Part shown: positions 4,437 through 44,474 of the stretch, in pieces
How positions within the stretch are numbered: the first letter of the stretch is position 1
Layout of the letters: every line of letters starts with the position of its first letter
IMG/VR virus record: IMGVR_UViG_3300020172_001601
Location: 64,198 to 128,197 of that record
Length of the DNA: 64,000 bases
Direction: 5' to 3' (one strand)
Origin: a virus
Notes under the pieces: generated by a model
The model's database searches: none
Told to the model about the DNA's origin: nothing
What the model saw: the letters and a program-made list of their open reading frames with translations, nothing else
Program-made: the position numbers and the translations under genes

Positions 4437-4497
4437 ACAATTTCTTGTAGTTCATTGAAAGAGCATTGTATACAAATCTACTATTCCGTGGTAAGAT

Positions 4498-5190
4498 ATG
4501 TCCATGAAAACCACAGCACGCTTGATTTGCATAGGTGACATACATGGTTGTGCCAATACTCTTCGAGTAATATTGAAGGATATTGACCCACAACCAGAAG
4601 ACTCTTTCGTATTTCTCGGCGACTATATCAACCGTGGTCCTGACAGCAAGGGCGTGATCGACCAGATCATTGCTCTCGGCGAAAAGTGCCACGTCGATAC
4701 GATATTGGGAAATCACGAAGAAATGCTCTTGGGTGCATACCAAGGTGGCAAATCCGATCATGCGTTTTGGTGCAAGTTCGGCGGGGACCAAACGCTGGCA
4801 TCCTACGGAGTGAATAACGTCAAAGATATTCCCGGCCAGCATTTGTTGTTCATTGCTCATTGCAAAGAATATCTGGAAACAGATGACTTTATTTTCGTTC
4901 ACGCTGGTTGCGATCCTGATCTTCCGCTGGACAAGAATGACGGTGCCGCTTTGCGATGGAATAAATTGGATACCAAGCAGACCAAGAAGCACATGACAGG
5001 CAAGACTGTTGTGTGTGGTCACACAGTTCAGCGACAGATATTTGACTTGGGCTATATCTGTTGTATTGATACAGGGTGTGGCGTTTGGCCCGGTGGCCGA
5101 TTAACTGCGATTGACCTTCGCTCCGGCAAGATTTGGCAAGCCGGTGGAAGAAGCAAGAAGGCCACAATCAAGCAGAGGGAAAACACATGA
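4498..5190 (+). CDS. Ser/Thr protein phosphatase, PPP/calcineurin-like metallophosphoesterase (lambda-PPase-like)
   Basis: GDIHG, GDYINRG and GNHE motifs. Confidence 0.75.
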   Translation: MSMKTTARLICIGDIHGCANTLRVILKDIDPQPEDSFVFLGDYINRGPDSKGVIDQIIALGEKCHVDTILGNHEEMLLGAYQGGKSDHAFWCKFGGDQTLASYGVNNVKDIPGQHLLFIAHCKEYLETDDFIFVHAGCDPDLPLDKNDGAALRWNKLDTKQTKKHMTGKTVVCGHTVQRQIFDLGYICCIDTGCGVWPGGRLTAIDLRSGKIWQAGGRSKKATIKQRENT

Positions 5191-5624
5191 GCGGATTCAA
5201 GCCAGCAGGAGCCTTCGCATATAAAACCAAGGATGGTCAAGAAACCGTTGCAGCTACGGCGAGTATGGGTTTGGTGCATTGGTATATGAGATCGTTGCCT
5301 AAGTTGGGCGATGTTCCTGATCCTTTGCCGGTCCTCGAAGTGACACCGATGGCGAGGGAGTTTCCTGGGCCATATGAACCGAACTTTTTTACGGTCGTAA
5401 TCGGCTGCATCGAGAGAACTTATGGAACAGCGCCGGAAATCGCTTCTGAGTTTTTGAGTCGAGAATGGTACAATAATCTACCAGAACGCCTTAACGACCA
5501 TAAGATTGTTGTTCAGGCTCGTCGTGATGCCGACCCTAAAGTGGTCGCTTACGAGGAAGTTTGCCTGGGCATCCTCAAGTGGTTGGCAAAGTATGGAGAC
5601 ATTATTGACCTGGAGGAACCTTGA
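5187..5624 (+). CDS. hypothetical protein
   Basis: ORF with internal ATG start after preceding gene. Confidence 0.4.
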   Translation: MSGFKPAGAFAYKTKDGQETVAATASMGLVHWYMRSLPKLGDVPDPLPVLEVTPMAREFPGPYEPNFFTVVIGCIERTYGTAPEIASEFLSREWYNNLPERLNDHKIVVQARRDADPKVVAYEEVCLGILKWLAKYGDIIDLEEP

Positions 5625-5870
5625 GCGATTTGGTGATGTGGATATGTATCGGCACGATGCTGATCGTACTCACTGAGATTTTTGGTCCGCTTTATGTAAA
5701 GTATTTCTGGCATGATCCAGAACGCCGCCTCAAAGAAATTGAGCGGCAAAATGCTTTGCTTGACAGAATCGAAAACTTCTGATATTCTCTGAGCAGTGAA
5801 ATAAACCGGGGCAGCGATGCCCTGGTTCTTTTGAAAAACAAAAAGAAAGTCGCCAGAAACCCAAATCGAC

Positions 5871-6127: not shown

Positions 6128-6218
6128 GGCGAGGTAGCTCAGTCTGTTAGAGCATTGTGAATAGGGGCCGAAAGGTCTACTAACGCAAGGGTCGGTGGTT
6201 AAAATCCATCCCTCGCCA
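6128..6218 (+). tRNA. oversized tRNA-like gene (91 nt); anticodon stem TTGTG/CGCAA encloses a 24-nt loop with GAAA-tetraloop hairpin
   Basis: Acceptor GGCGAGG/CCTCGCC, D-arm GCTC..GAGC, T-arm GGTGG-TTAAAAT-CCATC. Confidence 0.4.
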
Positions 6219-6295
6219 CTTTGTAAGTCAAATGCCGTCAGGACTACATTTGCAAAACGTAACGTCTTGGCAACCATTTGTTGACTTACATTTAT

Positions 6296-6410
6296 GGACT
6301 GTTAGCTCAGTGGCCTGTTTACAGGGAAGCCGGTTGTATTAGCCGAGAAATCGGATGATACAAACACTTCAGAGCGTCGTAGCAATACGAAGGTCGATGG
6401 TTCGATTCCA
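6296..6410 (+). tRNA. oversized tRNA-like gene (115 nt) with ~60-nt D-loop insertion and a 4-nt loop where the anticodon loop should be
   Basis: Acceptor GGACTGT/ACGGTCC, T-arm GATGG-TTCGATT-CCATC; internal GAAA/GCAA tetraloop hairpins. Confidence 0.4.
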
Positions 6411-6424
6411 TCACGGTCCACTAT

Positions 6425-6602
6425 GGGGAAGTAGTAGAATCCAACTCAGAGCAGTTGGAGTGGAAAAGCAGTTTAGGCTCACGGAGCAATCCGCATGTTG
6501 ATGGGGAAACCCATAAACATGAACCAAGAGGGGCGACCCTCGAACAACTGCCGAGAATACCGGGGTAACTCGGTGATGCTGGTTCGAGTCCAGCCTTCCC
6601 CA
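6425..6602 (+). tRNA. tRNA-like termini (GGGGAAG...CTTCCCC plus T-arm) separated by 178 nt; may be one interrupted gene or composite
   Basis: 5' acceptor/D-like start and 3' CTGG-TTCGAGT-CCAG T-arm with complementary acceptor strand. Confidence 0.25.
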
Positions 6603-6606
6603 CTAC

Positions 6607-6717
6607 GCAGCGGTAGCTCAAATAGAACCGTTTTACAGGTAGTGGCAACATTACTTGCATTTGGTAGAGCCTTCCGTAAGGAAGAGGTTGAAGGTGAGAG
6701 TCCTTCCCGCTGCACCA
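6607..6717 (+). tRNA. oversized tRNA-like gene (110 nt) with ~38-nt D-loop insertion and encoded CCA
   Basis: Acceptor GCAGCGG/CCGCTGC, D-stem GCTC/GAGC enclosing insert, T-arm GAAGG-TGAGAGT-CCTTC, ACCA end. Confidence 0.35.
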
Positions 6718-6880
6718 TGCTGGGGTAGTAGAATTGGAATGTATGACTAGGAAGCGACATGAGGTTGTAATGACCTTTAATTCGCCCCCATGACCATACA
6801 GAGAACGCTACAGTAATGTGGAAATGCAGGTTCGAGTCCTGCCCCCGGCACTTAACATTCAACACACAGGAGATTGCACG

Positions 6881-7351
6881 ATGGCATCAATTTCGCTTGC
6901 GAAGGCCCTGAAGCTGAAGAACCGTCTGGCTGGTCGTCTGAACAAAGTTCAGAATGATATTGTGACGTACAACTCAGTCCTGACCGAACAAGCGGGCAAA
7001 GTTGATGTTCCCGCTCTGTGCAAACTGCGTGATGAGATCGCCGACAACCTCATCGCATTGAAGACGAAGATCATCGTCTCCAATGCTGAGATTCAGGGCG
7101 ACCTGATTCGTCAGGGAGAATTGAAGTCCAAGTTGACGTGGCTTGCCACGCTCGACACCCGTGACGGCAAGGAACGTCATGGCTACCAAAACACCGAAGT
7201 AACCTGGACGGCCACGCTCAAGAAGAAAGACGTGGACGACGAAACCAGGAAGCTGGAAACCGAGATCGACGCCATCCAGGATAAGCTGGACAGCTTCAAC
7301 CACACGAAGAAAGTGGAAGTTGCTGATCGTTCGCTCGAACTCGCCAGCTAA
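6881..7351 (+). CDS. hypothetical protein (coiled-coil-like)
   Basis: AGGAG RBS then ATG at 6881; track ORF 6818 start trimmed because it began inside a tRNA-like gene. Confidence 0.45.
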   Translation: MASISLAKALKLKNRLAGRLNKVQNDIVTYNSVLTEQAGKVDVPALCKLRDEIADNLIALKTKIIVSNAEIQGDLIRQGELKSKLTWLATLDTRDGKERHGYQNTEVTWTATLKKKDVDDETRKLETEIDAIQDKLDSFNHTKKVEVADRSLELAS

Positions 7352-7392
7352 CGAGCCACCACGATCCGGGAGAGTAAGAGGGTCTGTGAGGA

Positions 7393-7440
7393 AACTATCG
7401 GGGGCTTCGGCCACCGATGGTCGTTTCTCCGAAAGGAGAG
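7393..7440 (+). terminator. two consecutive stable tetraloop hairpins (UUCG then GAAA) after ORF
   Basis: ATCGGGGGC-TTCG-GCCACCGAT and TCTCC-GAAA-GGAGA; contains GGGCTTCGGCCA 12-mer also found in tRNA-like inserts. Confidence 0.35.
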
Positions 7441-8146
7441 ACATTACATATTGTTCACGGTCAAGGTGACGCCTTATAGTTGAAACCTGATCGACTCAAA
7501 ATGTAAGCCTCAAGCTACAAAACTTTTCCCCTCCTGGCTTTCCCTTTTCCGGGTCGTGGCCTTTTCATGAACGGTAACTTCAGACGCTTAGTACGCAACC
7601 TTCGGAGGCAATCCATGAAGACTTACATCTTCACTCTCACAGATGAAGCGCAGGCAGAACCAGCACGGTTCTTGCCGTTCATCGAGAGCGAACTTGCTGC
7701 CCAGGGTTGTAGGAATTTCCAATACCTCACAGAAGTTGGTTGCATCACAGCCGACTTCCCAGGTGAACGGACTTTCGGCCCGATCAACGGTATCGGATCA
7801 GCGGAAGAAAGCGTCGATTGCACGACGCAAGCGTAACATGCCTTGGAAGGGGACCAGCATCCTCCCCAAAGTTGACTATATGTTGGTGATAGGTAGCATC
7901 TTCGGATGCCAACCCGCTTTAAGAACAAGCCAAACGTCTAGTGCCGAGTAGCTTGTTCTCCAACATGACTTCTACCTAAAAGGTGGAAGCGGCCCCTTCC
8001 AGGCACCTTATAACCCGATGGGCGTGGCGCAGCCCTAGTCAAAACGATATGCTCTACTGATTAGTAGTAGCTGGCGTATACTACGGGACACAATCAGTGG
8101 TGTATCTACCTTAAACGGTGGGCAGCAGCCCCCATCGGGTTCCTTC

Positions 8147-9860: not shown

Positions 9861-9950
9861 TGTGAGATACGCTAGTTGGTAAGCGGCGAAGCTGTTAACT
9901 TCGTGCAATCCGTCTTGAACGGTACGCAGGTTCGACCCCTGCTCTCACAG
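9861..9950 (+). tRNA. tRNA with anticodon GTT (Asn) carrying a 22-nt variable arm (90 nt)
   Basis: Acceptor TGTGAGA/TCTCACA; anticodon arm CGAAG-CTGTTAA-CTTCG; T-arm GCAGG-TTCGACC-CCTGC. Confidence 0.55.
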
Positions 9951-9956
9951 CTTTCT

Positions 9957-10043
9957 ATTCCCGAACGGGAATAGAACGATCCCGAACGGGAATAATTTGA
10001 TGTTTTTGGCAACAGAATAGTCAAATTATTCCCGAACGGGAAT
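9957..10043. repeat. three copies of palindromic motif ATTCCCGAACGGGAAT within 90 bp between tRNA genes
   Basis: Copies at about 9957-9972, 9979-9993 (imperfect) and 10028-10043. Confidence 0.7.
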
Positions 10044-12180: not shown

Positions 12181-12957
12181 CTGAAACATTTAACCTTTGG
12201 AGAAATACTATGGTGCGTCTTTGGCTCGAAACTGTGCGGATTTAGACCAACAGGTAGGTTACACCTGGGGCATTACTTCTCGGTGATTCAACCGGGACAA
12301 GCTGGGTGTACCGTACTGGTGGCAAACTATCATGCACCGGAGGTAAAGAATCTGGAAGTATCCGTGAACGCCTTACGGCAATACGGTGTCCAGACCATAG
12401 TGATTCAGAAGGACGTGTTTGACGCTGAGTTGTTCTTCCGACTATTGACGCTCGCTAAAATGGGCGACTTGAGCCGGATGACACAATTCAAGTCAACAGA
12501 AGAGGACGATAGGACTGGCCAATTGTTGACCTACCCTGTTCTCATGGCGCATGATGTTGCGGGTTACTCCGAAGTCATTGTGGGCCTGGATCAGAAGCAG
12601 CATTTGGAATATGCCAGAAAGCTGTTGAGAAAATACAACAGTGTATATGGCACGACATATCCAATCCCGATAGCGAATATCGTGGTGGGACGTGTCAAAG
12701 ATTTGCGTGACCCGACGAAGAAAATGTCGAAGTCATCACCACAAGGATGTTTATTCCTTGATGATAAGGTTGATGATATTCAACAAAAGATTCGGAAAGC
12801 GACCGCAGATGAAGAGGGCCTGAATAACTTGAAGTTTTTGTATGGGGAGTTTGTAAGAGAAACGCCTCCAACAAGTAATCAAGAACTAAAAGAAAAGCTG
12901 GCCGATGGTTTGGTGAAATGCTTTGCAAGCTGTAGTGGCACAGCATCCGGCTCTTAA
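12160..12957 (+). CDS. trpS: tryptophanyl-tRNA synthetase-like (short; no canonical start codon before the HIGH region)
   Basis: FRPTGRLHLGHY (HIGH region) at 12241-12276 lies upstream of first ATG/GTG; LTYPVLMAHDV and KMSKS present; frame opens at 12160 after TGA; 5' end abuts tRNA-Thr, 3' end overlaps tRNA-Lys. Confidence 0.6.
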   Translation, partial: VRFSQAALKHLTFGEILWCVFGSKLCGFRPTGRLHLGHYFSVIQPGQAGCTVLVANYHAPEVKNLEVSVNALRQYGVQTIVIQKDVFDAELFFRLLTLAKMGDLSRMTQFKSTEEDDRTGQLLTYPVLMAHDVAGYSEVIVGLDQKQHLEYARKLLRKYNSVYGTTYPIPIANIVVGRVKDLRDPTKKMSKSSPQGCLFLDDKVDDIQQKIRKATADEEGLNNLKFLYGEFVRETPPTSNQELKEKLADGLVKCFASCSGTASGS

Positions 12958-15801: not shown

Positions 15802-15926
15802 GCCGGGTTAGCTCAATGGTAGAGCGCCAAAAACTACTCTCAGCAATATTTGGGCTTCGGCCATGCTCGTTGGGAATACATTCCACTCGGAGGAGGAGGT
15901 CGTTGGTCCGATTCCAACACCCGGCA
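15802..15926 (+). ncRNA. tRNA-like RNA with ~50-nt structured insert at the anticodon-arm position; paralog of 41936-42058
   Basis: Perfect acceptor GCCGGGT/ACCCGGC, canonical D-arm, T-arm GTTGG-TCCGATT-CCAAC; insert has ATATTTGGGCTTCGGCCATGC (UUCG hairpin) and ATGCTCGTTGGGAATACATT hairpin. Confidence 0.5.
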
Positions 15927-15928
15927 CT

Positions 15929-16825
15929 ATGATTTGCGTTTACTTAGTAAATGAAGAACCGGCTTATATTGGGATGTTGTCCCTCAGCCTTAAAATGCTG
16001 CGACAGCATAACCCTAATGTGCCAGTTATTGTTTACTATGTCCAAGATGGCAAAAGGGATTCACGAAAAATCCCGCTCACTGAAATAACGAGAGCCTTGA
16101 ATAAGTTGCCAAACGACTATGCGTCGTTCAGTAATCTCTGCGAAGAACTCAATGTCGAGATTAGAGTTCGCAAGCCAAAACAAGAAGAAGCATATTACTC
16201 TCTGCATCGTTTGCTGTTGCAGGAGATCGAAGAAGAGACAGTGCTTCTGTTAGATGGCGACACCTTTATCTTCGGCAATATTGAGGAATTTCCCAAGATA
16301 TATGCTGGATACGATTTTGTCGCCACACCGAATTCTTGGGGCATGGTTCATCCGGTTCCTGGTTTAGACCCCAGCTTCAAGTCGTTCAACTCCGGCGTGG
16401 TGTTATGTCAGAACGGCATATTCAAGCGTTGGATGAATACAATAGGCGATTACTGTCAGAGATTATATGACGGTCGCCATCCACAGTCAGAATGGTTGTG
16501 GAGTGTAAGTTTAGAGTGTGCTGGCCGAGAAGAGTTGGCGGCGAGTTTGTTTGTTTTAGACAACGGTTTGAAGTACAGATACTTCGAGGATCAGCATGTG
16601 CAAATGGGGAGTTACGATGGCAACACCCGCATATTGCACACGCTAAGTCCTAGTTGGCATTCGTTGTATAACGAATGCTTCAAACCACAACGGCGAATGC
16701 TTTTTAAGCCACGCTTAAAAAATGATGCAGATGCCAGTCGTGAAGCAGATGATGATCTTGATTATCCACCAGAGGCCGATGGCAATACCGCCAACGCCCA
16801 GGCCGAACAACCAAGTTTTGAATGA
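15929..16825 (+). CDS. putative glycosyltransferase (GT8-like nucleotide-sugar transferase)
   Basis: LLDGDTFIF DxD-like motif; track start 15863 trimmed because it lay inside the tRNA-like RNA. Confidence 0.4.
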   Translation: MICVYLVNEEPAYIGMLSLSLKMLRQHNPNVPVIVYYVQDGKRDSRKIPLTEITRALNKLPNDYASFSNLCEELNVEIRVRKPKQEEAYYSLHRLLLQEIEEETVLLLDGDTFIFGNIEEFPKIYAGYDFVATPNSWGMVHPVPGLDPSFKSFNSGVVLCQNGIFKRWMNTIGDYCQRLYDGRHPQSEWLWSVSLECAGREELAASLFVLDNGLKYRYFEDQHVQMGSYDGNTRILHTLSPSWHSLYNECFKPQRRMLFKPRLKNDADASREADDDLDYPPEADGNTANAQAEQPSFE

Positions 16826-16909
16826 TTTAAGTTTAGAAATGAACTTGTCCTTGTCCATGTGTACCTCCTTGATACGATAAGGTATATATGCAACAATGAT
16901 GATGATTTT

Positions 16910-16985
16910 CAGGGTGTAGCTCAGTTTGGTAGAGCGCCTGGTTCGGGACCAGGAGGTTTCGGAGGTTCAAGTCCTCTCACCCTGA
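16910..16985 (+). tRNA. tRNA-Pro (CGG)
   Basis: Acceptor CAGGGTG/CACCCTG; anticodon arm CCTGG-TTCGGGA-CCAGG. Confidence 0.8.
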
Positions 16986-16998
16986 CTTGTAGAGACAA

Positions 16999-17018
16999 AT
17001 GCTAGTTGGGTTTACATT
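16999..17018 (+). repeat. copy of motif ATGCTAGTTGGGTTTACATT in 3' trailer of tRNA-Pro(CGG)
   Basis: Homologous to 15863-15882, 17182-17202, 42000-42018; region 16990-17092 bounded by inverted repeat AGAGACAA/TTGTCTCT. Confidence 0.55.
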
Positions 17019-17094
17019 GGATGCTAAGGCTCGGACCTAAAAGCTACCGCAAGGTGGCTGCAAAACAACTCAGCGCAATTTGTTGTCTCTATAT

Positions 17095-17169
17095 CAGGGT
17101 GTAGCTCAGTTTGGCTAGAGCGCCCGGTCTGGAACCGGGAGGCCGTAGGTTCAAGTCCTACTACCCTGA
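17095..17169 (+). tRNA. tRNA-Pro (TGG by position; C at 33)
   Basis: Acceptor CAGGGTG/TACCCTG; anticodon arm CCCGG-TCTGGAA-CCGGG. Confidence 0.7.
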
Positions 17170-17181
17170 CTTTTGTGACAA

Positions 17182-17202
17182 ATGCTCGTTTGGGATTACA
17201 TT
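17182..17202 (+). repeat. copy of motif ATGCTCGTTTGGGATTACATT in 3' trailer of tRNA-Pro(TGG)
   Basis: Region 17172-17300 bounded by inverted repeat TTTGTGACAA/TTGTCACAAA and contains a T-arm-like TTGG-TTCGACT-CCAA. Confidence 0.55.
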
Positions 17203-17327
17203 TGGTTCGACTCCAAGGGGCGGCTCTTTCAAAAACATGCCGCCCAACCAGCACAGGGCAACCTGGGGCTGGGGTCCGATCTCAGCACAATTTGTTGTCA
17301 CAAAATACACTTAAAAGAAAGATTGCT

Positions 17328-17699
17328 ATGCCAGAAAAATACAATTCGGTACTTTGGAAGGACTTTCCAACACTCGTTAAAAACGAACTGGAAAGAGCTA
17401 GGAATAAACACCCCGGCACTCAACATAACCTGCATGAAGGTTATGCGGTCATCCTTGAAGAAGTGGACGAATTTTGGGACATAGTAAAGAGCCAAAGGCC
17501 CGATCCGGTTCACGCCATTGAGGAATTGGTTCAAATCGCCGCTATGTGCCAAAGGACAGCGGAAGACTTGCTGTTGCGGAAAGAAAAGCGATGCAGTCGT
17601 TGCAATGTCCTATTGTCAGAAAACATTGCTAAGTATTGTGGCGATAGTGAAGAGAAAGAATCTCACAGATGGATGTCTGTTCCAGACGAGAAGACTTAA
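17328..17699 (+). CDS. MazG-like nucleotide pyrophosphohydrolase domain protein (putative)
   Basis: HEGYAVILEEVDEFWD resembles the MazG EExxE metal site; start trimmed to ATG 17328. Confidence 0.4.
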   Translation: MPEKYNSVLWKDFPTLVKNELERARNKHPGTQHNLHEGYAVILEEVDEFWDIVKSQRPDPVHAIEELVQIAAMCQRTAEDLLLRKEKRCSRCNVLLSENIAKYCGDSEEKESHRWMSVPDEKT

Positions 17700-17702
17700 T
17701 TC

Positions 17703-17776
17703 AGGCTGTAGCTCAGTTTGGCTAGAGCGCTTGCATGGGGTGCAAGAGGTCGGAGGTTCAAGTCCTCTCAGCCTGA
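17703..17776 (+). tRNA. tRNA-Pro (GGG)
   Basis: Acceptor CAGGCTG/CAGCCTG; anticodon arm CTTGC-ATGGGGT-GCAAG. Confidence 0.8.
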
Positions 17777-17963
17777 CTGAATTTCGTATTTTTTTTCTTA
17801 TTACGAATGCGACCATCGAGGCAACAAGAAAGGTGATGTAAGTGCAATGCTTACACTTAGCAAAAATTCTATATTAGCTGAAATGCAAAAATGCGATGTA
17901 AGATGTGTTCGTTGTCATCGTCTTAAAACAGCGAAAGAATTTGGCTATTACAAAATGATACTT

Positions 17964-18034
17964 GCTTCCTTGGTATAACGGTATTACGCCGCCCTCGTAA
18001 AGCGGAAATGAGTGTTCAATTCACTCAGGAAGCT
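17964..18034 (+). tRNA. tRNA-Thr (CGT)
   Basis: Acceptor GCTTCCT/AGGAAGC; anticodon loop CTCGTAA. Confidence 0.75.
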
Positions 18035-18043
18035 CTGATATAT

Positions 18044-18116
18044 GACAGCGAAGCCAAACGGCTCGGCGACAGTTTCATAAGCTGTTCATTAGTGGGTTCG
18101 ACTCCCACCGCTGTCA
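18044..18116 (+). tRNA. tRNA-Met/Ile2 (CAT) third copy
   Basis: Acceptor GACAGCG/CGCTGTC; anticodon arm ACAGT-TTCATAA-GCTGT. Confidence 0.65.
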
Positions 18117-18207
18117 CTTGGTTCAAATGCAGGCAGGATTACATTTATCGGGCGATGAGCCGAAAGGGTCGCTGGTTCGATTCCAGCCCCAGCAGCTTAG
18201 ATAGATT

Positions 18208-18789
18208 ATGTTGAAACCCACACGTTTAATTTGGCAAGACTTGGTTAGTCGGATTGTTCAATTGGGACATGATCGAGATCAAGTTGTGCATGGCTCAATG
18301 CCTGAAAGTACACTGGCTCTTTTGTCAAATGTATTGACAGGGAATGGTTTGCAAATTGGTGGATTTGTTGGCGTGTCTCATTGTTATTTGGCGTGGGCCT
18401 TGCGAGACAAAGGCTCGATATGCACTGTGGACCCCAATTTGAAACATCGTGGTATTGAAAATCCTTTCTTGGTTGCGACCAGGATGGTTTCTGAGTTTGG
18501 ATTATTGAAAAACTCAATGCTGATATGTGGATATGGCCTAAAACAAATGCGGTTGTTTGCGATCTTGGGAGTGAAATTTGATTTCATCATTTTGGATGGC
18601 AATCATGATTTTCAGATGGTGAATGATGAGATCGAGTGCGCCACACCGATATTGAAAGACGGTGGATATTTGGTCTTGGATGACATCGACCATTGGGACG
18701 GTCCAAAAAAGGTTTACAACAGCGGTCCAGCAGGGTATAATCGGATCGAACTGGATTCGAGGGCTGGACTTTTGCAGAAAATGGGGTAA
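18208..18789 (+). CDS. class I SAM-dependent methyltransferase (Methyltransf_24/TylF-like)
   Basis: ILDGNHDFQMV..LKDGGYLVLDDI matches the DGDHSYE..PGG..DD pattern. Confidence 0.5.
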   Translation: MLKPTRLIWQDLVSRIVQLGHDRDQVVHGSMPESTLALLSNVLTGNGLQIGGFVGVSHCYLAWALRDKGSICTVDPNLKHRGIENPFLVATRMVSEFGLLKNSMLICGYGLKQMRLFAILGVKFDFIILDGNHDFQMVNDEIECATPILKDGGYLVLDDIDHWDGPKKVYNSGPAGYNRIELDSRAGLLQKMG

Positions 18790-24427: not shown

Positions 24428-24496
24428 GTCTCGGCCTGCGGATCAGGCGTTGGGCCTCCGAAGCCCGAATGAAAGGTTCGACTCCTTTCCGGGATA
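24428..24496 (+). tRNA. tRNA-Arg (CCG)
   Basis: Acceptor GTCTCGG/CCGGGAT; anticodon arm TGGGC-CTCCGAA-GCCCG. Confidence 0.7.
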
Positions 24497-24499
24497 CTT

Positions 24500-24567
24500 G
24501 CCCCTGGTGATGGACACAGCAGATCGTTCTAAGGTCAGCGTTGAGGGTTCGATTCCTTCCGGGGGCG
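24500..24567 (+). tRNA. tRNA, anticodon unresolved (loop region GTTCTAAGG; possibly TCT)
   Basis: Acceptor GCCCCTG/CGGGGGC; T-arm GAGGG-TTCGATT-CCTTC. Confidence 0.5.
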
Positions 24568-24697
24568 CTTGGGTCAAATGCCATGATGGGAGTACATTCT
24601 GTTAAAATGACCCCTCTCATCGAATAATTTGTTGACCCATTTTTTAGAAATTGTGCCTACCATTGGCACTTACTCAAGCTAAGGGTACGGGCGTGTA

Positions 24698-34520: not shown

Positions 34521-35159
34521 AAAACACGATGGTTGGTTTTGGTTTGCGTCAATTATATTATGATTGACTGCTAAACCAGGGATAGGAACCGATGATGGAC
34601 TCTTTAGTGTAAGCAACACGCCCAGAGATGGCTTCAAAGGGAAATGCTTGGTAAATCCAATAGGCCACCAGTTCGCTGGGTTCTATGGGCTAGTCCGAGA
34701 GAGAGCGAGTCAAAGGGTGGTATTCCCTGTACGCAAATTGACAACGCCTACGGGATTAACGACCGGGGCCGATAGTCTAGCAGTCCTTCGGCAGTGGGTT
34801 TGACCCCCACAGGGACCAGCCATCGTGCTTTTAAGAAACGTGCCTACCATTGGCACATATGGAAAGGATCAATGGATATTTACAAACCTATTCGTGACGG
34901 GCCAAACAGCATTTTAATGCTCGTTTGGAGCTACGTTGAGAATCTAATGCCAACAATCTCAATGAGATTAGTTTGGATGCTCCCTGGCCACCGGAAAACC
35001 GAGATCAGGGTCAATGATTTGAGTGGTTCTTGGCACTGGCAGGCTGTCATGAGTGGGGATTCTGTCATAGAATAGCCGAACTAAGGTTCGCTCAAAGGGA
35101 GTGGACTCGAATAAGGCGAATAAAGGCAGAGCGGGACCACAGATTATCTGCTAACTATG

Positions 35160-36232: not shown

Positions 36233-36309
36233 GTCCCCATAGCTCAACTGGATAGAGCAACAGCCTTCTAAGCTGTAGGTTGCAGGTTCGAGTCCTGCTG
36301 GGGATACCA
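36233..36309 (+). tRNA. tRNA-Arg (TCT) with encoded CCA
   Basis: Acceptor GTCCCCA/TGGGGAT; anticodon arm ACAGC-CTTCTAA-GCTGT; A73-CCA. Confidence 0.8.
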
Positions 36310-36821: not shown

Positions 36822-36924
36822 GGTCGGGTAACTCAGCGGCAGAGTCATCAGTGAATCCGGGTGGTTTTATAGTTGCCATTGCGGAAAGCTGATGAGGTCG
36901 CAGGTTCGAGTCCTGCCCCGGCCA
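36822..36924 (+). tRNA. tRNA (possibly Phe, TGAA in loop) with ~30-nt insertion in the anticodon loop (103 nt)
   Basis: Acceptor GGTCGGG/CCCGGCC; D-arm ACTC..GAGT; anticodon stem CATCA/TGATG enclosing GTGAA-[TCCGGG...GCGGA]-AAGC; T-arm GCAGG-TTCGAGT-CCTGC. Confidence 0.5.
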
Positions 36925-37331: not shown

Positions 37332-38240
37332 ATGAACATCACACGCATTGCTCCGTCGCCGACCGGCGATATGCACATTGGCACTGCCAGAACCGCATAT
37401 TTCAACTGGCTCGCAGCACGGGCCAGCGGTGGTAAGTTCATTCTTCGGGTGGACGACACCGATCAGAAGCGAAACGATCCAGCCTATACAGAAGTCATTC
37501 TGTCCACAATGAAGTGGCTAGGTTTGGACTACGATGAGATCGTCTTCCAGAGTTCCAGATTCGACGTATACAAGGCCGCAGCGGGCTTGTTGATCCATGA
37601 AGGCTGGGCCGTTCCAAAAGATGGAGCCACGGTTTTTAACTTGAAGAAGGACCATGTTTTTCCTTCTCATTGGAAGGACGAAATCAAGGGCGACATCAAG
37701 ATCAGCGATGATGACATATCCCATATGGATGGGATGGTTCTCATTAAGTCTGATGGGAGTCCATCTTATAACTTTTGTTCGATTGTTGATGATTTGCACA
37801 TGGGGGTCAACCTAATCATCCGTGGAGTGGATCATATAACAAACACAGCAAAGCAGGTGATGCTTTGGGATGTCCTCAATAGCGGACAGACGATACCAAG
37901 GTTTGCCCACCTGGGTCTTATTTGCATTGATGGAAAGCCTATGTCCAAAAGAGACGGGGCATCGAGCATGTTGAATTACATGAACGCCGGATATGATTCC
38001 GACGCCATGTTGAATTTTCTTGCACGCCTTGGTTGGGGGCCAACAAAGGACGACAAGTCCACAACCCTATTGCCGAGAGACAAGATGCTTGAAATGTTTC
38101 TAACTTCGGGTAAGATGAGGAGTCAGCCAGCTAGTTTCGATTCTGGCAAATTGGAGTCGTTCGACCGCAAGTACAAGGCCCGTAAGGGGACTTGGCGAAC
38201 GGGCGACAAGTTGATTTCTGACACTAACAAAGAGGCATAG
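37332..38240 (+). CDS. glutamyl-tRNA synthetase catalytic core lacking the anticodon-binding domain (GluQRS-like architecture)
   Basis: APSPTGDMHIGTARTAYFNWL (HIGH region), RVDDTDQKRN, KPMSKRDG (KMSKS); 302 aa, ends where GluRS anticodon-binding domain would begin. Confidence 0.7.
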   Translation: MNITRIAPSPTGDMHIGTARTAYFNWLAARASGGKFILRVDDTDQKRNDPAYTEVILSTMKWLGLDYDEIVFQSSRFDVYKAAAGLLIHEGWAVPKDGATVFNLKKDHVFPSHWKDEIKGDIKISDDDISHMDGMVLIKSDGSPSYNFCSIVDDLHMGVNLIIRGVDHITNTAKQVMLWDVLNSGQTIPRFAHLGLICIDGKPMSKRDGASSMLNYMNAGYDSDAMLNFLARLGWGPTKDDKSTTLLPRDKMLEMFLTSGKMRSQPASFDSGKLESFDRKYKARKGTWRTGDKLISDTNKEA

Positions 38241-39264: not shown

Positions 39265-39837
39265 ATGGCTGGATCGTTAGAAAGATTCGACTTCCAAGGT
39301 CGAAGTCTTGTGCGTGATGTATTCATTGAAACTGGCACTTACCTGGGCCAGACTTCGGAGAATGCGGCTCGTGCGGGGTTCAAGCATGTCCATACCATCG
39401 AAGTCTCCGACAGGATATTTGCACTGGCTCAAGAGCGATTTGCAGGCCGAACAGACGTGACGCCACATCACGGCTCCAGCCCTAATGTGCTGCCAAGCCT
39501 TTGCGATCCTAAATTGTCAACTGTGTTTTATCTGGACGGCCATTACCAAGGTGGGCCGCTTGATGAAAATGATCCGTTGGTTGGGGAATGTCCTCTGATA
39601 TTGGAGTTGGATATTATTCGAGCGGTGGCTTGGGAAAAGTTGCCAGTCATCATAATTGATGACTCGAAGATATTCACTATTGCGGCTGAAAGTCGTGATG
39701 ACTATTTGAAAAACTGTCATCTTGATCCGGTCTTTTGGCCAAGTTATCAACAGGTGATTGATGCGTTGGGACCGGCCTATACGGTCTACGAAGAAGATGA
39801 TAGGCTGTACTGCATACCTGGGGATGACAATGAGTGA
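39265..39837 (+). CDS. putative SAM-dependent methyltransferase (TylF/Methyltransf_24-like)
   Basis: ETGTYLG glycine motif and VFYLDGHYQGG. Confidence 0.35.
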   Translation: MAGSLERFDFQGRSLVRDVFIETGTYLGQTSENAARAGFKHVHTIEVSDRIFALAQERFAGRTDVTPHHGSSPNVLPSLCDPKLSTVFYLDGHYQGGPLDENDPLVGECPLILELDIIRAVAWEKLPVIIIDDSKIFTIAAESRDDYLKNCHLDPVFWPSYQQVIDALGPAYTVYEEDDRLYCIPGDDNE

Positions 39838-40090
39838 CATGCCAAGGGCGTCTTGGATTCATCGTGTTGATGCCCGCCGATTTCATTCGGCGGCAAGAAT
39901 GATGGAAGACGATTTGGAAGGTGCCTACTTGACCTGTAGGGAAAAGTACGGTGCAGAAGTGGCTGGAGTAGTGTTGGTCACAATACTCCGACAAAAATTG
40001 AACAACAATCAAGACCAATGGCCTCCACCGGAAGACCTTATTCGCAAGGTGAACAACTTTCTCGTGGAACACGGCTTAATGATTGATTGA
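39824..40090 (+). CDS. hypothetical protein
   Basis: ATG 39824 overlapping previous stop. Confidence 0.35.
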   Translation: MTMSDMPRASWIHRVDARRFHSAARMMEDDLEGAYLTCREKYGAEVAGVVLVTILRQKLNNNQDQWPPPEDLIRKVNNFLVEHGLMID

Positions 40091-40134
40091 ATTTGTTGAC
40101 TGGATGTGGGGTGCGAACCTCACCATGACATAGT

Positions 40135-41880
40135 GTGTCTGGTCAAATAACTCGAAAGGCAATGGTGATTACGATGGCTAACAAGAATCTATTCAAGTCT
40201 GAGCGTGGCTCAATTGTTCCAGCAACGGACGTTCTCAACGAAGCTGGTGGTGTTGCATACAAGATGAGTGCAAAGCAGGCCCTTGCGCAGTACGTCTGCA
40301 CTGGCTGCTTGAACGGCACCTACTACACGTCTGCCAAGACGCAACTGGACACTGTTCGTCAGTTGCTTACTGAAGTCGAGCCTGAGTTCCTTGGTCAGTT
40401 GGCTGTGTACTCGCACGAAAAGTCCTTCATGAAGGACTTGCCTGCTCTGTTGGTCGCATTCCTCGCATCCGACAAGGGTGCTGGTGGTGGTCCAACTACG
40501 GCTACGCAGGAGCGAAAGCTGAAGACGCTCCGTAAGGTTTTCCATCGTGTCATCGACAGCGGCAACATGCTGCGCAACTTTGTGCAGATGATCCGTTCGG
40601 CAGCATTCGGTCGCAAGTCATTCGGTGAAGTGCCTCGCAAGCTGATTCGTGACTGGTTCGAGAATAAGTCTCCGGCTGGTATTTTCTTCCAGAGCATTGG
40701 CAATAGCCCATCCCTGGCAGATATTATCAAGCTGACCAAGCCGAAGCCGAACACGCCTGAAAAGGCGGCTGTATTGGCGTATCTGCTTGGTGCAGAAACC
40801 GTTGACGGCGAAGATGGCAAGTTGCTTGTTCGCAAGTATCTTGACCGTGCCGACAAGCAGGTGAAGGTTGCGTACTCGCAGCCTTACGACAACCTGCCGG
40901 AAATCATTCGTGAATACGAAGCGTGGAAGAAGGACAAGAGCCTCCCGGTTCCTGCCATCAACTTCCGCTTCCTGGACAACGAGAAGCTGTCAACTGCTCA
41001 GTGGGCAGATATTGCTTCCAAGGCAAACTGGCTTACGACCCTGAAGAACCTCAACGCATATGCCGACCACGGCGTATTCGGCGTTGAAGGCATGACTGAC
41101 ATGATCGCCGCACGTCTCAGCAATGCTGATGAAGTGCGTAAGGTTCGGGTATTCCCATACCAGATCATGATGGCCTACCTCGCAACCGATACGGAAGCGA
41201 AAGTACCGCCCAAGGTCCGTAACGCCATTCAGGATGCTATGGAAGTGGCATGTGAAAACGTACCAGCGTTGGGAAAGGTTAAGTTCTTCCCGGACGTGTC
41301 TGGTTCGATGAGGAGCGCTGCTATTACGGGCGACCGTGGTTCGGCGACTTCTAAGGTTCGGTGTGTTGACGTGGCTGCTCTGTTCGCAGTGGCAATGCTT
41401 CGTCGCAACCCGGAAGCGGAAGTAATTCCGTTCGAGCAGACGGTTCGTGAACTTACACTGAACCCTCGTGACAGCATCATGACCAACGCTACTCGCCTCG
41501 CAGCGATTGGCGGTGGTGGAACCAACTGTTCGGCCCCACTTGCTTTGCTCAACGCAAAGAAGGATTGGTCGGCAGACGTGTTGGTGTATATTTCGGACTA
41601 TGAGTCCTGGGTGGATAGCACTGGCTACCACGCTGGTAATGGCAACGGTACAGCACTGCTCAATGAGTGGGTGAAGTACAAGAGCCATAACAAGAATGCC
41701 AAGCTGATTTGCATCGACTTGACCCCTCGTGCAAACCATCAGGTCAAGGAACGTGATGATATTCTCCAGGTCGGTGGATTCTCGGACAACGTATTCAACG
41801 TGATCGCAAGGTTCGTTGAAGGCGGCTGGTCGAAGGATTTTTGGGTCAAGGAGATTGAAAGCGTTCAACTGGATACTTAA
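40135..41880 (+). CDS. rsr: Ro60 ortholog (Rsr): TROVE domain plus vWA domain with MIDAS
   Basis: NEAGGVAY..LAQYVCTGCLNGTYY matches Ro60 N..GG...L..F..G..GTYY; VRVFPYQIMMAY; MIDAS DVSGSM; GGGGTNCSAPL. Confidence 0.85.
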   Translation: MSGQITRKAMVITMANKNLFKSERGSIVPATDVLNEAGGVAYKMSAKQALAQYVCTGCLNGTYYTSAKTQLDTVRQLLTEVEPEFLGQLAVYSHEKSFMKDLPALLVAFLASDKGAGGGPTTATQERKLKTLRKVFHRVIDSGNMLRNFVQMIRSAAFGRKSFGEVPRKLIRDWFENKSPAGIFFQSIGNSPSLADIIKLTKPKPNTPEKAAVLAYLLGAETVDGEDGKLLVRKYLDRADKQVKVAYSQPYDNLPEIIREYEAWKKDKSLPVPAINFRFLDNEKLSTAQWADIASKANWLTTLKNLNAYADHGVFGVEGMTDMIAARLSNADEVRKVRVFPYQIMMAYLATDTEAKVPPKVRNAIQDAMEVACENVPALGKVKFFPDVSGSMRSAAITGDRGSATSKVRCVDVAALFAVAMLRRNPEAEVIPFEQTVRELTLNPRDSIMTNATRLAAIGGGGTNCSAPLALLNAKKDWSADVLVYISDYESWVDSTGYHAGNGNGTALLNEWVKYKSHNKNAKLICIDLTPRANHQVKERDDILQVGGFSDNVFNVIARFVEGGWSKDFWVKEIESVQLDT

Positions 41881-41905
41881 AATATATCCAGCTAGGTTTG
41901 GCTGG

Positions 41906-41937
41906 GGACCGGGTTGCCGGTCCTCGGCCTGCTTTTT
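41906..41937 (+). terminator. hairpin plus T-run after Ro60 gene
   Basis: GGACCGG-GTTG-CCGGTCC then TCGGCCTGCTTTTT. Confidence 0.45.
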
Positions 41938-42058
41938 GGCGGTAGCTCAATGGTAGAGCAAAAGTAAAAACAAATCTAAGCGATATTTGGGCTTCGGCCA
42001 TGCAGTTTGGATTACATTATCCAACTTTAGGTTGTGTGTTCGATTCACACCCCGCCAG
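41936..42058 (+). ncRNA. tRNA-like RNA with ~55-nt structured insert, about 55 nt downstream of Ro60 stop (Y-RNA-like candidate; alternatively an intron-bearing tRNA)
   Basis: Acceptor TTGGCGG/CCGCCAG, canonical D-arm GCTC-AATGGTA-GAGC, T-arm GTGTG-TTCGATT-CACAC; helix AAAGT/ACTTT encloses insert with ATATTTGGGCTTCGGCCATGC and ATGCAGTTTGGATTACATT hairpin, homologous to 15802-15926. Confidence 0.5.
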
Positions 42059-42205
42059 CTTCCAGCAGACTTTTATTTTCAGGTGATATATGGCTAAAGG
42101 CAATAACTCTCAGAAGAATGACAAGAAAGACAAAAAGCAACCCAAGAACGCTAAGAAGGCAGCAGCAAATCAGCCCGCTGTTATTGGCAAGTCTAAGGGT
42201 AAGTA

Positions 42206-43690: not shown

Positions 43691-44416
43691 TTGAATATCA
43701 CCAAGATGGCATTGGTGGTTGTTGGGGAATCTATCACGGGGAAGTGGCAAAATATGGCGAAGCGCATTGCCAAACTTGCGAGTATAAAGCCGCAAGTACA
43801 AATGATCGAAAGTAATTTCTCTCCCATGTACAACGAAGGCGTTACTGTTATTTCACAGCCGCCCACTCGTCGTATTGTTCAAATCAATATGGAGTATCGT
43901 GGTGATGATGAAGACGAAGAGGGATACAACGGAAACTTCTTCCTGAGTTTTCCCTTGATGTATTTTCGTATTCAATACAAAAGATACTTTGAGAAAAACA
44001 AAGAACAATTTGTTGCATCGTCGCTTCACGTCATTTTTGCTGTTGCCGACAACAAAAGCAAAGCATTCATTCCACCACTTCCAAATGTTGACGACTCGAT
44101 GCGAGTTTGCATCGAGTTGCCAAAGAAGCGATTTTCAAATATTGACGACCTCTACAAAGAGGTTATTGCTTGCTTTTGGTCAACAGACTTCAATGATGGA
44201 ATGTACGACGCTTACGAACAATATGATTGGGAATCCTTGTTGGGCGATCACCGTAAATGGCAAAAGAAAACAAAGAAGCAGCCCACCTGGATTCCAAATG
44301 GTCGCAGCTTGAAGCCAATTGAAAATTTCGACAAGAAGTTTTTCTATGGAGCGTCCTTCAAAAAGAACATCCAGCCAGAAGACTGTTCCGATGACTACGA
44401 CGACGATGGTTACTGA
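43691..44416 (+). CDS. hypothetical protein with acidic C-terminus
   Basis: 241-aa ORF ending DDYDDDGY. Confidence 0.4.
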   Translation: MNITKMALVVVGESITGKWQNMAKRIAKLASIKPQVQMIESNFSPMYNEGVTVISQPPTRRIVQINMEYRGDDEDEEGYNGNFFLSFPLMYFRIQYKRYFEKNKEQFVASSLHVIFAVADNKSKAFIPPLPNVDDSMRVCIELPKKRFSNIDDLYKEVIACFWSTDFNDGMYDAYEQYDWESLLGDHRKWQKKTKKQPTWIPNGRSLKPIENFDKKFFYGASFKKNIQPEDCSDDYDDDGY

Positions 44417-44445
44417 TTTACAACCAGACAAGATTGCGGTATAAT
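44417..44445 (+). promoter_or_regulatory. sigma70-type promoter TTTACA-N17-GCGGTATAAT upstream of IleRS
   Basis: Conserved architecture. Confidence 0.55.
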
Positions 44446-44474
44446 CCCTCCTACTCTTTACTTGCGAGGGATCA

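Follow-up and report, generated by a model that had tools for sequence, protein, structure and literature searches.

The window analysed here (64,000 nt, positions 64,198 to 128,197 of the IMG/VR viral record IMGVR_UViG_3300020172_001601) carries a conserved RNA motif of about 20 nt, found inside two tRNA-like RNAs and behind several tRNA genes. We consider it highly probable that this motif belongs to the Ro60-binding module of Y RNAs of the YrlA/YrlB type, with five copies of the classical topology and two circularly permuted, tRNA-shaped copies, all of them predicted ligands of a Ro60 protein encoded by the same phage. Judging from sequence comparison, the motif, being the 5' strand of the module, very probably is the docking site for Ro60 in seven Y RNA genes. 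The assignment is made because the seven copies lie on one strand, compared with about one expected by chance, because a Ro60 gene is located in the window, because the motif can be aligned with YrlA, because a covariance model of the phage copies has matches at bacterial Ro60 loci, and because the helices of the module covary.

A two-helix module in seven copies

A relaxed form of the motif (ATGC-N2-6-GG-N1-3-TACA) was observed seven times on the plus strand of the window and never on the minus strand, the chance level with both strands pooled being 1.1 on average and four at most (200 dinucleotide-preserving shuffles). A hidden Markov model (HMM) of the 5' half yielded the same seven sites and no other credible match in the window. 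The copies, all on the plus strand, are F (6222-6290), A (15802-15926), C (16988-17093), D (17171-17305), E (approximately 18119-18226), G (24570-24639) and B (41936-42058). F and G are absent from the initial annotation of this stretch, and were located by searches with a regular expression and for the basal stem, together with the HMM. The two tRNA-like RNAs of that annotation, A and B, are borne out by the Rfam tRNA model (46.4 and 37.9 bits, respectively) and share the core CT(C/A)AGC(A/G)ATATTTGGGCTTCGGCCATGC; the motif ATGCTNGTT(T)GGGNTTACATT is indeed present at 16999-17018 and 17182-17202, directly 3' of tRNA-Pro(CGG) and tRNA-Pro(TGG), and the inverted repeats described around these elements (AGAGACAA/TTGTCTCT and TTTGTGACAA/TTGTCACAAA) are real. 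The copy with a T arm after the tRNA at 18044-18116 also exists, only its GGATTACATT lies at 18136-18145 and not at 18137-18147; nearly all other positions, and the sequences, of the initial annotation proved right. Thus, the notion of an unannotated structured-RNA family tied to tRNA 3' ends holds, with seven copies and two covarying helices.

The module consists of a basal stem (P1), an asymmetric internal loop, a helix of 7-8 bp (P2), a nearly invariant single-stranded UACAUU linker and a variable distal domain. The 5' strand of the internal loop is AUGC plus 1-3 nt, and its 3' strand has 8-10 nt ending in A(U/A)UUUG (also written (N)NAAUUUG). The two strands of P2 are blocks that had been listed separately in the initial annotation, the 5' strand as GUUGGGAU and the 3' strand as CUCAGC; in these terms, the 20-nt motif joins three parts of an ordinary Y RNA, namely the loop strand, the 5' strand of P2 and the linker. 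Of the copies, five (F, C, D, E and G) are of classical topology, and two (A and B) are circular permutations of the same module; this relation between the A/B insert and the elements behind the Pro tRNAs had escaped the initial annotation. In C, D, F and G, P1 is formed by the two ends of the element (8-11 bp), its 5' side ending in CAA and its 3' side starting with UUG, and distally F and G have a loop of 13-20 nt, C has a pair of hairpins, and D has a T arm followed by a closed stem of 7 bp and a hairpin. In A and B, the order is the 3' strand of P2, AAUAUUUG, a 3-bp hairpin GGC-UUCG-GCC replacing P1, AUGCNN, the 5' strand of P2 and UACAUU.

To assess these helices we used 17 aligned modules of both topologies from the window and its relatives, hand-assembled around the proposed pairing. 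The P1 and P2 cells were paired in 97.4% of cases, compared with 68.7% in shuffles and at most 51% when the partners were slid, and 13 of the 15 P1/P2 pairs had changed on both sides; as the alignment is hand-built and many of its rows are orthologs or paralogs, these statistics overstate independence and are supportive rather than a formal proof, which weighs against relying on them too heavily. Within P2, one pair is G·U in 16 of the 17 sequences, the next one is an invariant G:C, followed by A:U. In related phage contigs (contigs and loci used for comparison are denoted by L numbers), the C ortholog of L127 has A:U instead of G:C as the first pair of P2, and in the G ortholog of L252 a compensatory change in P1 turned GGG/CCC into GAG/CUC.

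Covariation also bears on the initial suggestion of a small mobile RNA element. With a length of 70-135 nt, inverted repeats at their ends and several copies beside tRNA genes, the elements resemble miniature inverted-repeat transposable elements (MITEs), which in this case would insert behind tRNA genes. However, the terminal arms differ among the copies and change in a compensatory manner between orthologs, as expected of an RNA helix and not of a transposase site; all copies are on one strand, and relatives have the orthologs at the same positions. The flanks read show no target-site duplications (no dedicated search was run) and consist of the general tRNA trailer, and IMG/VR pattern scans gave no dispersed copies outside the clade among the matches listed. 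A MITE-like origin is hence hardly credible. The exact-pattern scans, made for both topologies, left after filtering only chance matches and the known close relative among the matches listed, and say little on the distribution of the family.

A competing local fold was also considered. The initial annotation had proposed a hairpin with compensatory changes within the insert core of A and B, one of its versions, GGAAT-ACA-ATTCC, being a misreading of GGGAATACATTCC. In L127, L129, L252 and L343, the local hairpin (GGAA-UACA-UUCC in A, UUGGAU-UACAUU-AUCCAA in B) is either disrupted or missing, and it was rejected in favour of P2, which the same bases form with the upstream CUCAG-type strand and which covaries. 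L259 and L256 have a possible hairpin in another register, and the local hairpin may be an alternative conformer in some lineages.

Two further sites were dismissed as members. The 12-mer GGGCTTCGGCCA, previously listed as a family copy at 7405-7416, lies at 7402-7413 and is a generic UUCG-capped hairpin after an open reading frame (ORF), with no module features and no match to the HMM or to the covariance models. The sequence ATGCTCGTTTGG at 34917 is located inside a possible ORF of 93 aa, has no P1, and gives an nhmmer E-value of 7.5 and no match to the covariance model R2 (see below).

The Ro60 gene and the likeness to Y RNAs

A Ro60 (Rsr) ortholog is encoded on the plus strand at 40135-41880 (581 aa if counted from the first GTG; relatives have 560-580 aa, and the true start codon is uncertain). 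The ORF matches the Pfam domains vWA_Ro60 (59 bits, cutoff 27.7) and TROVE (21.6 bits), and has thousands of homologs, many of them labelled in the source as '60 kDa SS-A/Ro ribonucleoprotein'. Copy B starts 56 nt downstream of its stop codon on the same strand. Y RNAs are known to bind Ro60 via a motif near the 5' end, GNCGAAN0-1G, and to be encoded near Ro60 (PMC4201824). The guess of the initial annotation that the copies might be binding sites for an RNA-binding protein, possibly Ro60, gains support here, as the motif corresponds to the YrlA module and the Ro60 gene is located beside B.

The Rfam YrlA model (RF02553) aligns with D over its full length (model positions 1-114), albeit weakly. 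The motif of D falls on the YrlA positions cggCgaAUGCu-uggGgaaCUAc and uucCccaaAaAcUuGucGccg (the aAaAcUuG strand), which form the Ro60-binding stem of YrlA. YrlA RNAs (Salmonella, Mycobacterium smegmatis, mycobacteriophages; PMC4201824, bioRxiv 10.1101/312249) have the same Ro60 module as the phage copies: P1 of at least 6 bp, the 5-nt AUGCu, P2 of 7 bp, the 8-nt aAaAcUuG and a CUAc/UACA linker. They are also similar in occurring in several copies per genome and, as regards part of the phage set, in having a tRNA-like domain as the partner of the module and in being encoded with Ro60. In D, the parts come in the YrlA order, with the T arm first, then the closed acceptor-like stem and then another hairpin. 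The differences are that the classical phage copies have CAA/UUG in P1 where YrlA has CGA/UCG, that they score far under the Rfam gathering score, and that most of them lack the tRNA-like domain.

If the motif is a Y RNA module, its model should find Y RNAs of other genomes. A covariance model of the copies, a check suggested in the initial annotation, was built from nine phage copies of the classical topology only (R2) and searched on 80 bacterial loci (L263-L342) chosen solely for encoding a Ro60 homolog. At E <= 1 we observed 282 matches, of which 281 are on the strand of Ro60, many of them in tandem arrays a few kb from the gene. One match (L264, 7317-7433) coincides with a Rfam YrlA match at 7319-7434 that exceeds the gathering score (85.6 bits). 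Two other bacterial modules read GGGUCAA AUGCA GCUGGGAC UACAUC...GUCUCAGC AAACUCUUG UUGACCC and GCGCGA AUGCC GUUGGAAC UACAUC, the latter followed by a T arm, an acceptor-like stem and a D arm and closed by AAAAACUUG UCGCGC. The design of G is nearly identical to that of a bacterial Y RNA beside rsr (L317, 6592-6658). The Rfam YrlA model at its gathering score found only two sites in the seven bacterial loci scanned.

In many bacteria (Pyrinomonadaceae and other Acidobacteriota, Verrucomicrobiota, Planctomycetota) Ro60 is located beside a tRNA array, with as many as six Y RNA-like elements in tandem before or after it (for example, L281, 4260-4852; L294, 950-4683; L320, 45-4523).

Several observations speak against the assignment to Y RNAs. 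The six copies other than B are on the same strand as Ro60 but 15-34 kb away from it, past the 4-kb criterion of the literature. The best YrlA score, that of D, is 16.6 bits compared with the gathering score of 69, the distal domains being too divergent. The classical copies deviate from the published GNCGAAN0-1G by one substitution, reading G(A/U)CAAAUG (UUCAAAUG in E), and the P1 partner of the substituted base changes from C to U; of the same motif, A and B keep only GGCCAUG, which makes their affinity for Ro60 less certain. Finally, a relative that has lost Ro60 keeps B and an E-like copy intact. In this single lineage only the last 290 nt of Ro60 are left; C, D and G are absent, and A is without its 5' half. 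The loss of these RNAs along with Ro60 speaks for a link between the RNAs and the protein, whereas the persistence of B can be read either way. The retained copies might serve a host Ro60 partner or have another role. The relative, L005 (IMG/VR UViG_3300032053_005312, 78.6 kb; 91-96% nucleotide identity), has a deletion of approximately 1.76 kb at 9946-10000, corresponding to window positions 39829-41589, that takes nearly the whole Ro60; the leucyl-tRNA synthetase region (window 44383-46989) is absent from it as well.

In the cultured phages Mx1 (Myxococcus), BoomerJR (Streptomyces) and Phabba (Mycobacterium), there was no YrlA match at E < 0.5 near Ro60, and neither R2 nor R1 (a model built without the L259 copy and used for the tRNA-shaped copies below) gave anything convincing. 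As the Ro60 proteins of these phages are only 21-41% identical, their RNAs are probably too divergent for the models. About 4 kb downstream of the Ro-like gene of BoomerJR (L261, 10596-10710) there is a tRNA-like sequence of 115 nt (Rfam tRNA 28.2 bits, gathering score 29), with GCGAAAUGC, which fits GNCGAAN0-1G, directly past the D arm; judging from its sequence, this element may be a Y RNA/tRNA hybrid in a cultured actinophage.

The classical copies within the tRNA array

The window is a piece of the translation-gene island of a huge phage, with its own Ro60 ortholog and seven Y-type RNAs. We describe it as such because of its translation-related protein genes, its tRNA array, the lack of a close cultured relative, and metagenomic relatives on contigs of up to 673 kb. 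It contains 49 tRNA genes called by ARAGORN and several tRNA-like genes visible only to Rfam; the proteins include four aminoacyl-tRNA synthetase families (as fragments or full copies), a ribosome recycling factor, an L7/L12-like protein and a gp32-type single-strand DNA-binding protein. No close relative of the window was found among cultured phages, and the metagenomic ones (70-96% nucleotide identity) are contigs of 78 kb to 673 kb, some of them in IMG/VR. Two of the synthetase-like ORFs are short (12283-12957, 224 aa, Trp/Tyr class; 37332-38240, 302 aa, Glu/Gln catalytic domain), and by their sequences seem to be fragments or stand-alone domains, not full enzymes.

Among the 46 genes for tRNAs and tRNA-like RNAs that were checked, 44, including A and B, have CU after the discriminator base (CUU, n = 16; CUG, n = 12; CUA, n = 11; CUC, n = 5), as in the three nucleotides past the discriminator at 16986-16988, 17170-17172 and 42059-42061; CCA is encoded by only one gene of the 46 (ending at 36306). 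The CU trailer looks like a genome-wide 3'-processing signature of the phage tRNAs. Thus, the CUU preceding the Y RNAs is the general tRNA trailer and no special signal.

The five classical copies begin 1-3 nt past the discriminator of a tRNA or tRNA-like gene, and the next such gene starts 5 nt after F and 1 nt after C. F is a mini Y RNA of the YrlB kind without a tRNA-like domain, composed of P1 UGUAAGUCAA/UUGACUUACA, AUGCC, P2 GUCAGGAC/GUCUUGGC, UACAUU and the loop strand AACCAUUUG. Its minimum free energy fold contains both P1 and P2 (z = -3.5); it scores 63 bits with R2, of which it is a training sequence, and its nhmmer E-value is 2e-4. It is placed 3 nt past a tRNA-like gene at 6128-6218 on the plus strand (an anticodon-loop insert of about 26 nt; Rfam tRNA 49.5 bits and fold) and ahead of another one starting at 6296; a cut at the 3' end of the former would generate the 5' end of F.

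C, a classical Y RNA with neither a T arm nor any other tRNA-like domain, is flanked by tRNA-Pro(CGG) at 16910-16985 and tRNA-Pro(TGG) at 17095-17169, both on the plus strand and called by ARAGORN and Rfam. It comprises P1 UGUAGAGACAA/UUGUCUCUAUA, AUGCUA, P2 GUUGGGUU/AACUCAGC, UACAUU and GCAAUUUG (fold z = -3.0; R2 74.6 bits, training sequence). The second of these tRNAs precedes, by 1 nt, the YrlA-like D, with P1 UUUUGUGACAA/UUGUCACAAAA, AUGCUCG, P2, UACAUU, a T arm UUGG-UUCGACU-CCAA, a closed 7-bp acceptor-like stem, a third hairpin and ACAAUUUG, and with no canonical D arm (z = -4.5; R2 66 bits, training sequence). E, 3 nt past the tRNA at 18044-18116, is a degenerate or rearranged copy: its 5' half GGUUCAA AUGCAG GCAGGAU UACAUU is intact and is followed by a T arm, its only tRNA-like part, the 3' strand of P2 is lost, and P1 requires a bulge (R2 24 bits; z = +0.4). 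The E orthologs of L249 and L127 are intact mini Y RNAs. G is a mini Y RNA followed by a U run, without a tRNA-like domain, formed by P1 UGGGUCAA/UUGACCCA, AUGCCAU, P2 GAUGGGAG/CUCUCAUC, UACAUU and GAAUAAUUUG (z = -2.6; R2 72.7 bits, training sequence), and it starts 2 nt past a tRNA-like gene of 114 nt on the plus strand (24454-24567; R1 20 bits and fold).

This placement suggests that the classical Y RNAs are excised from tRNA precursors by tRNA-trimming enzymes. F, C, D, E and G would be transcribed within polycistronic tRNA transcripts and released by cleavage at the 3' end of the upstream tRNA and by RNase P cleavage at the 5' end of the downstream tRNA. The ends of small RNAs are similarly set by the processing of an adjacent tRNA (RNase P/RNase Z) in MALAT1/mascRNA, plant tRNA-snoRNA dicistrons and herpesvirus tRNA-miRNA units; these are eukaryotic or viral and concern other RNA classes, whereas the phage case is deduced from sequence. 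The same layout is observed in the viral contig L002 (Ro60 44% identical), where at least four Y-like elements are directly 3' of tRNAs (one Rfam YrlA match at E = 3e-9 and three R2 matches), and a bacterial instance is found in L320, with a tRNA at 4450-4523 and a YrlA at 4531. The tRNA array of L002 also includes a tmRNA (Rfam 132.7 bits) and a tRNA with the anticodon UUA (ochre suppressor type), at 5445-5856 and 8042-8118, respectively.

The start of all five classical copies right behind a tRNA could alternatively mean that the elements are tRNA 3'-processing signals, as also proposed initially, or self-cleaving ribozymes that free the upstream tRNA, similar to the HDV-like theta ribozymes behind phage tRNAs. 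The existence of two topologies would fit the latter, as in twister and hammerhead, circular permutation being typical of some ribozyme classes. However, the element follows only five of about 50 tRNA genes, B is located beside Ro60, away from the array and not behind a tRNA, and the CU trailer is a separate feature. Ribozyme families had no match in the window at either gathering or permissive thresholds, and the same module occurs by hundreds beside bacterial Ro60 genes, in many cases not behind tRNAs, and fits the curated YrlA model. A role in tRNA processing of either kind is hardly tenable.

In the Y RNA reading, short Y RNAs, such as YrlB of Salmonella and Yrl1/Yrl2 of the Thermus phage phiLo (PMC12135203), provide a close parallel to F, G and C: stem, internal loop and stem with the Ro60 motif and without a tRNA-like domain. 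In phiLo, binding of the phage Ro60 to phage Y-like RNAs has been shown experimentally (PMC12135203). The phiLo genes are two and lie just upstream of Ro60, whereas the phage of the window has seven, the classical ones being inside the tRNA array directly behind tRNA genes and far from Ro60. By analogy, all seven RNAs would bind the phage Ro60. As in the known Ro60-Y RNA particles, they might gate Ro60 or tether partners to it, tRNA-binding enzymes in the case of the tRNA-shaped forms, or PNPase-type nucleases; phage Ro60 binds host PNPase in addition to phage-encoded Y-like RNAs (PMC12135203). Among the 30 larger ORFs of the window (at least 123 aa) scanned with Pfam, no gene for RtcB or PNPase was found.

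The tRNA-shaped copies A and B

A, located 12 nt past tRNA-Glu(CTC), has an acceptor stem GCCGGGU/ACCCGGC, the discriminator A, a D arm, and a T arm with C55. At the anticodon position it bears a module comparable to that of B, with P2 UCUCAGC/GUUGGGA, the above AAUAUUUG and GGC-UUCG-GCC hairpin, AUGCUC and UACAUU, on an anticodon stem of only 2 bp. B has an acceptor stem, a D arm GCUC-AAUGGUA-GAGC, an anticodon stem AAAGU/ACUUU, a variable loop AGGUU, a T arm GUGUG-UUCGAUU-CACAC and the discriminator G. Its insert of 58 nt, which the Rfam tRNA model puts exactly at the 7-nt anticodon loop, comprises P2 AUCUAAGC/GUUUGGAU, GAUAUUUG, the hairpin GGC-UUCG-GCC, AUGCA and UACAUU. The D arm of both (UAGCUCAAUGGUAGAGC) is the consensus D arm of YrlA. 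A and B exceed the gathering score of the tRNA model (RF00005), but the loop is replaced, there is no conserved U33 or anticodon, and they are not called by ARAGORN. Both are solitary, with no flanking Y RNA halves.

Thus, in the proposed structure, P1 would be reduced to a closed 3-bp hairpin with a UUCG loop, and P2 would open into a tRNA body with an open acceptor stem, a D arm and a T arm, and in B also a 5-bp anticodon stem. Sharing the CU trailer of the phage tRNAs, A and B would be processed by the tRNA machinery and probably receive CCA.

The location of B directly behind Ro60 is retained in L343 and L344 (Ro60 95% identical), L127 (86%), L256 (83%) and L129 (72%); in L259 (58%) the ortholog is 0.8 kb downstream of Ro60, and one is also present in L005. 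It was not found in L128, L257, L130 and L258. Depending on the lineage, the capping hairpin is GGC/GCC, UAC/GUA or UCC/GGA, the tetraloop being always kept, and the anticodon stem is AAAGU/ACUUU, GAAGG/CCUUU or ACGG/CCGU; double changes are also observed in P2 and in the acceptor stem. In seven sequences of the A/B type, the cloverleaf with the module is 95% paired, and 13 pairs changed on both sides. R1 scores the L259 copy, which was not used in its construction, at 64 bits, compared with at most 54 for ordinary tRNAs.

The neighbours of B are the Ro60 gene with a hairpin and a U tract upstream, and an ORF downstream. The hairpin with its U tract (41900-41937, plus strand; 13 bp, GGCUGGGGACCGG-GUUG-CCGGUCCUCGGCC) lies between the Ro60 stop codon and the first base of B, has an equivalent ahead of B in L127, L129, L256 and L343, and by its sequence could be terminator-like or protect the 3' end of the mRNA. 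The ORF (42092 to about 42250) is small and lysine-rich (MAKGNNSQKNDKKDKK...); it is conserved directly past B, or directly past Ro60 where B is absent, and is also present in L127, L128, L256 and L343.

As for the status of these copies, one possibility is that only the classical ones are functional, and A and B are decaying by-products of recombination or pseudogenes that resemble a tRNA with an insert. Such arrangements arise easily, since junctions of tandem bacterial YrlA genes score as a tRNA with an insert both with R1 and with the Rfam tRNA model. The state of A points in the same direction, with C55 in the T loop and the 2-bp anticodon stem, and so do two observations that count against a functional role of the permuted copies: A, which has an intact ortholog in L252, is decaying elsewhere, with its 5' half lost in L249, L250 and L253 and its 3' half lost in L129, and B of the window lacks one G of the acceptor 5' strand that is present in all seven related copies examined. 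Against decay stand the retention of B directly after Ro60 in lineages with Ro60 58-95% identical, compensatory changes in the acceptor stem, the anticodon stem, P2 and the capping hairpin with its invariable tetraloop, the absence of flanking Y RNA halves, the compact UUCG hairpin used as the cap instead of two juxtaposed P1 strands, and the trailer signature of the phage tRNAs in both copies. On balance we consider the pseudogene explanation unlikely.

Alternatively, A and B could be tRNA genes with an intron in the anticodon loop, the removal of which would give a decoding tRNA. The insert is located exactly at the anticodon loop of a good cloverleaf, and the phage has other tRNA-like genes with inserts. 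However, a group I intron would need more length than the insert offers, no intron family matches it and no bulge-helix-bulge motif is seen. The flanks left without the P2-P1 module (8 + 11 nt in B) give no loop of 7 nt in which U33 and a conserved anticodon are present, and they vary in length and sequence among B, L256 and L259. The insert itself is a Y RNA module. The intron explanation is very unlikely.

The other insert-bearing genes, not called by ARAGORN, have insertions of 25-110 nt in the anticodon loop or the D loop (window 6128-6850, 24454-24567 and 36822-36924). A recurrent subgroup with the insert in the anticodon loop comprises 36822-36924 of the window and genes of L259 (3538-3639), L256 (5221-5324), L128 (7630-7732) and L257 (8698-8795); the loop of the insert hairpin is UUUAUAGUU in all of them except L257, which has the more divergent CUAUAGUUU. 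These genes could encode tRNAs with introns or additional RNAs built on a tRNA scaffold.

The 80 bacterial Ro60 loci yielded no permuted copy standing by itself. R1 matches of 120-150 nt in these loci had been considered as tRNA-topology Y RNAs, and the one inspected, in L320, proved to be the junction of two tandem classical YrlAs, beginning with the D arm of the first and ending with the T arm of the second, scoring 49 bits with R1 and having a fully paired acceptor stem; a similar tandem junction in L324 scores 41.2 bits with the Rfam tRNA model and 40.9 bits with R1. As these junctions already read as a tRNA with a Y module in the anticodon loop, trimming of a tandem YrlA pair would yield the form of A and B, which most likely originated in this way, through duplication of tandem Y RNA copies followed by trimming; tandem arrays of this kind are the rule beside bacterial Ro60 genes. 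Permutation by tandem duplication is the usual explanation for permuted tRNA and tmRNA genes. The latter (permuted tRNAs of Cyanidioschyzon and others, two-piece permuted tmRNA) are similar to the phage set in presenting tRNA-related RNAs in two permutations, but they are processed back to one functional topology, whereas in the phage both topologies apparently persist as separate genes in one genome.

In relation to YrlA, which resembles a circularly permuted tRNA with a closed acceptor stem (bioRxiv 10.1101/312249), the topology of A and B is reversed, with an acceptor stem open at the RNA ends and a Ro60 stem closed by a tetraloop. The topology of Y RNAs is already known to vary, since Yrn1 of Deinococcus radiodurans has tRNA-like features with the arms oriented unlike those of YrlA relative to the RNA ends (PMC4201824). 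Still, the Ro60 site of Yrn1 is in the stem formed by the 5' and 3' ends, as in all characterized Y RNAs (bioRxiv 10.1101/312249). This is true for F, C, D, G and, with a bulge, E, but not for A and B, where the site is in an internal hairpin of 3 bp capped by UUCG and the ends form the acceptor stem. A and B would hence be Y RNA-like in their working while falling outside the definition of the family as written.

No description of a tRNA-shaped Y RNA with the Ro60 site at the position of the anticodon loop was found in the literature searched. Most copies of the window are new members of a known RNA family in a new setting; what is new in kind is the tRNA-topology Y RNA. Whether A, B and their orthologs constitute a previously undescribed class of Y RNAs, with true tRNA topology, tRNA-like processing, probable CCA and the Ro60-binding module in place of the anticodon loop, is in our judgement evenly balanced.

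Ro60-Y RNA particles are conserved from bacteria to humans, and human Ro60 is a major autoantigen in lupus and Sjögren syndrome. A single phage with both permutations of a tRNA body plus Ro60 module is a natural experiment on the tRNA-like half of Y RNAs and on their origins. Unlike YrlA, the tRNA-topology form offers a free acceptor end, and it makes the role of CCA, aminoacylation and binding of tRNA enzymes in Ro60 function addressable. If the reading of A and B is correct, these RNAs could tether Ro60 to proteins that bind the acceptor end or the elbow, such as the CCA-adding enzyme, synthetases, EF-Tu or RNA repair enzymes, and they would represent a surviving intermediate in the derivation of Y RNAs from tRNAs through duplication and permutation, which has long been suspected. 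There is also an annotation gap, as the module-only covariance model finds hundreds of sites beside bacterial Ro60 genes where the full-length YrlA model finds few (two, in seven loci). Finally, huge phages interleave Ro60 cofactors with their tRNA arrays, which points to RNA quality control or repair as a part of the phage translation toolkit.

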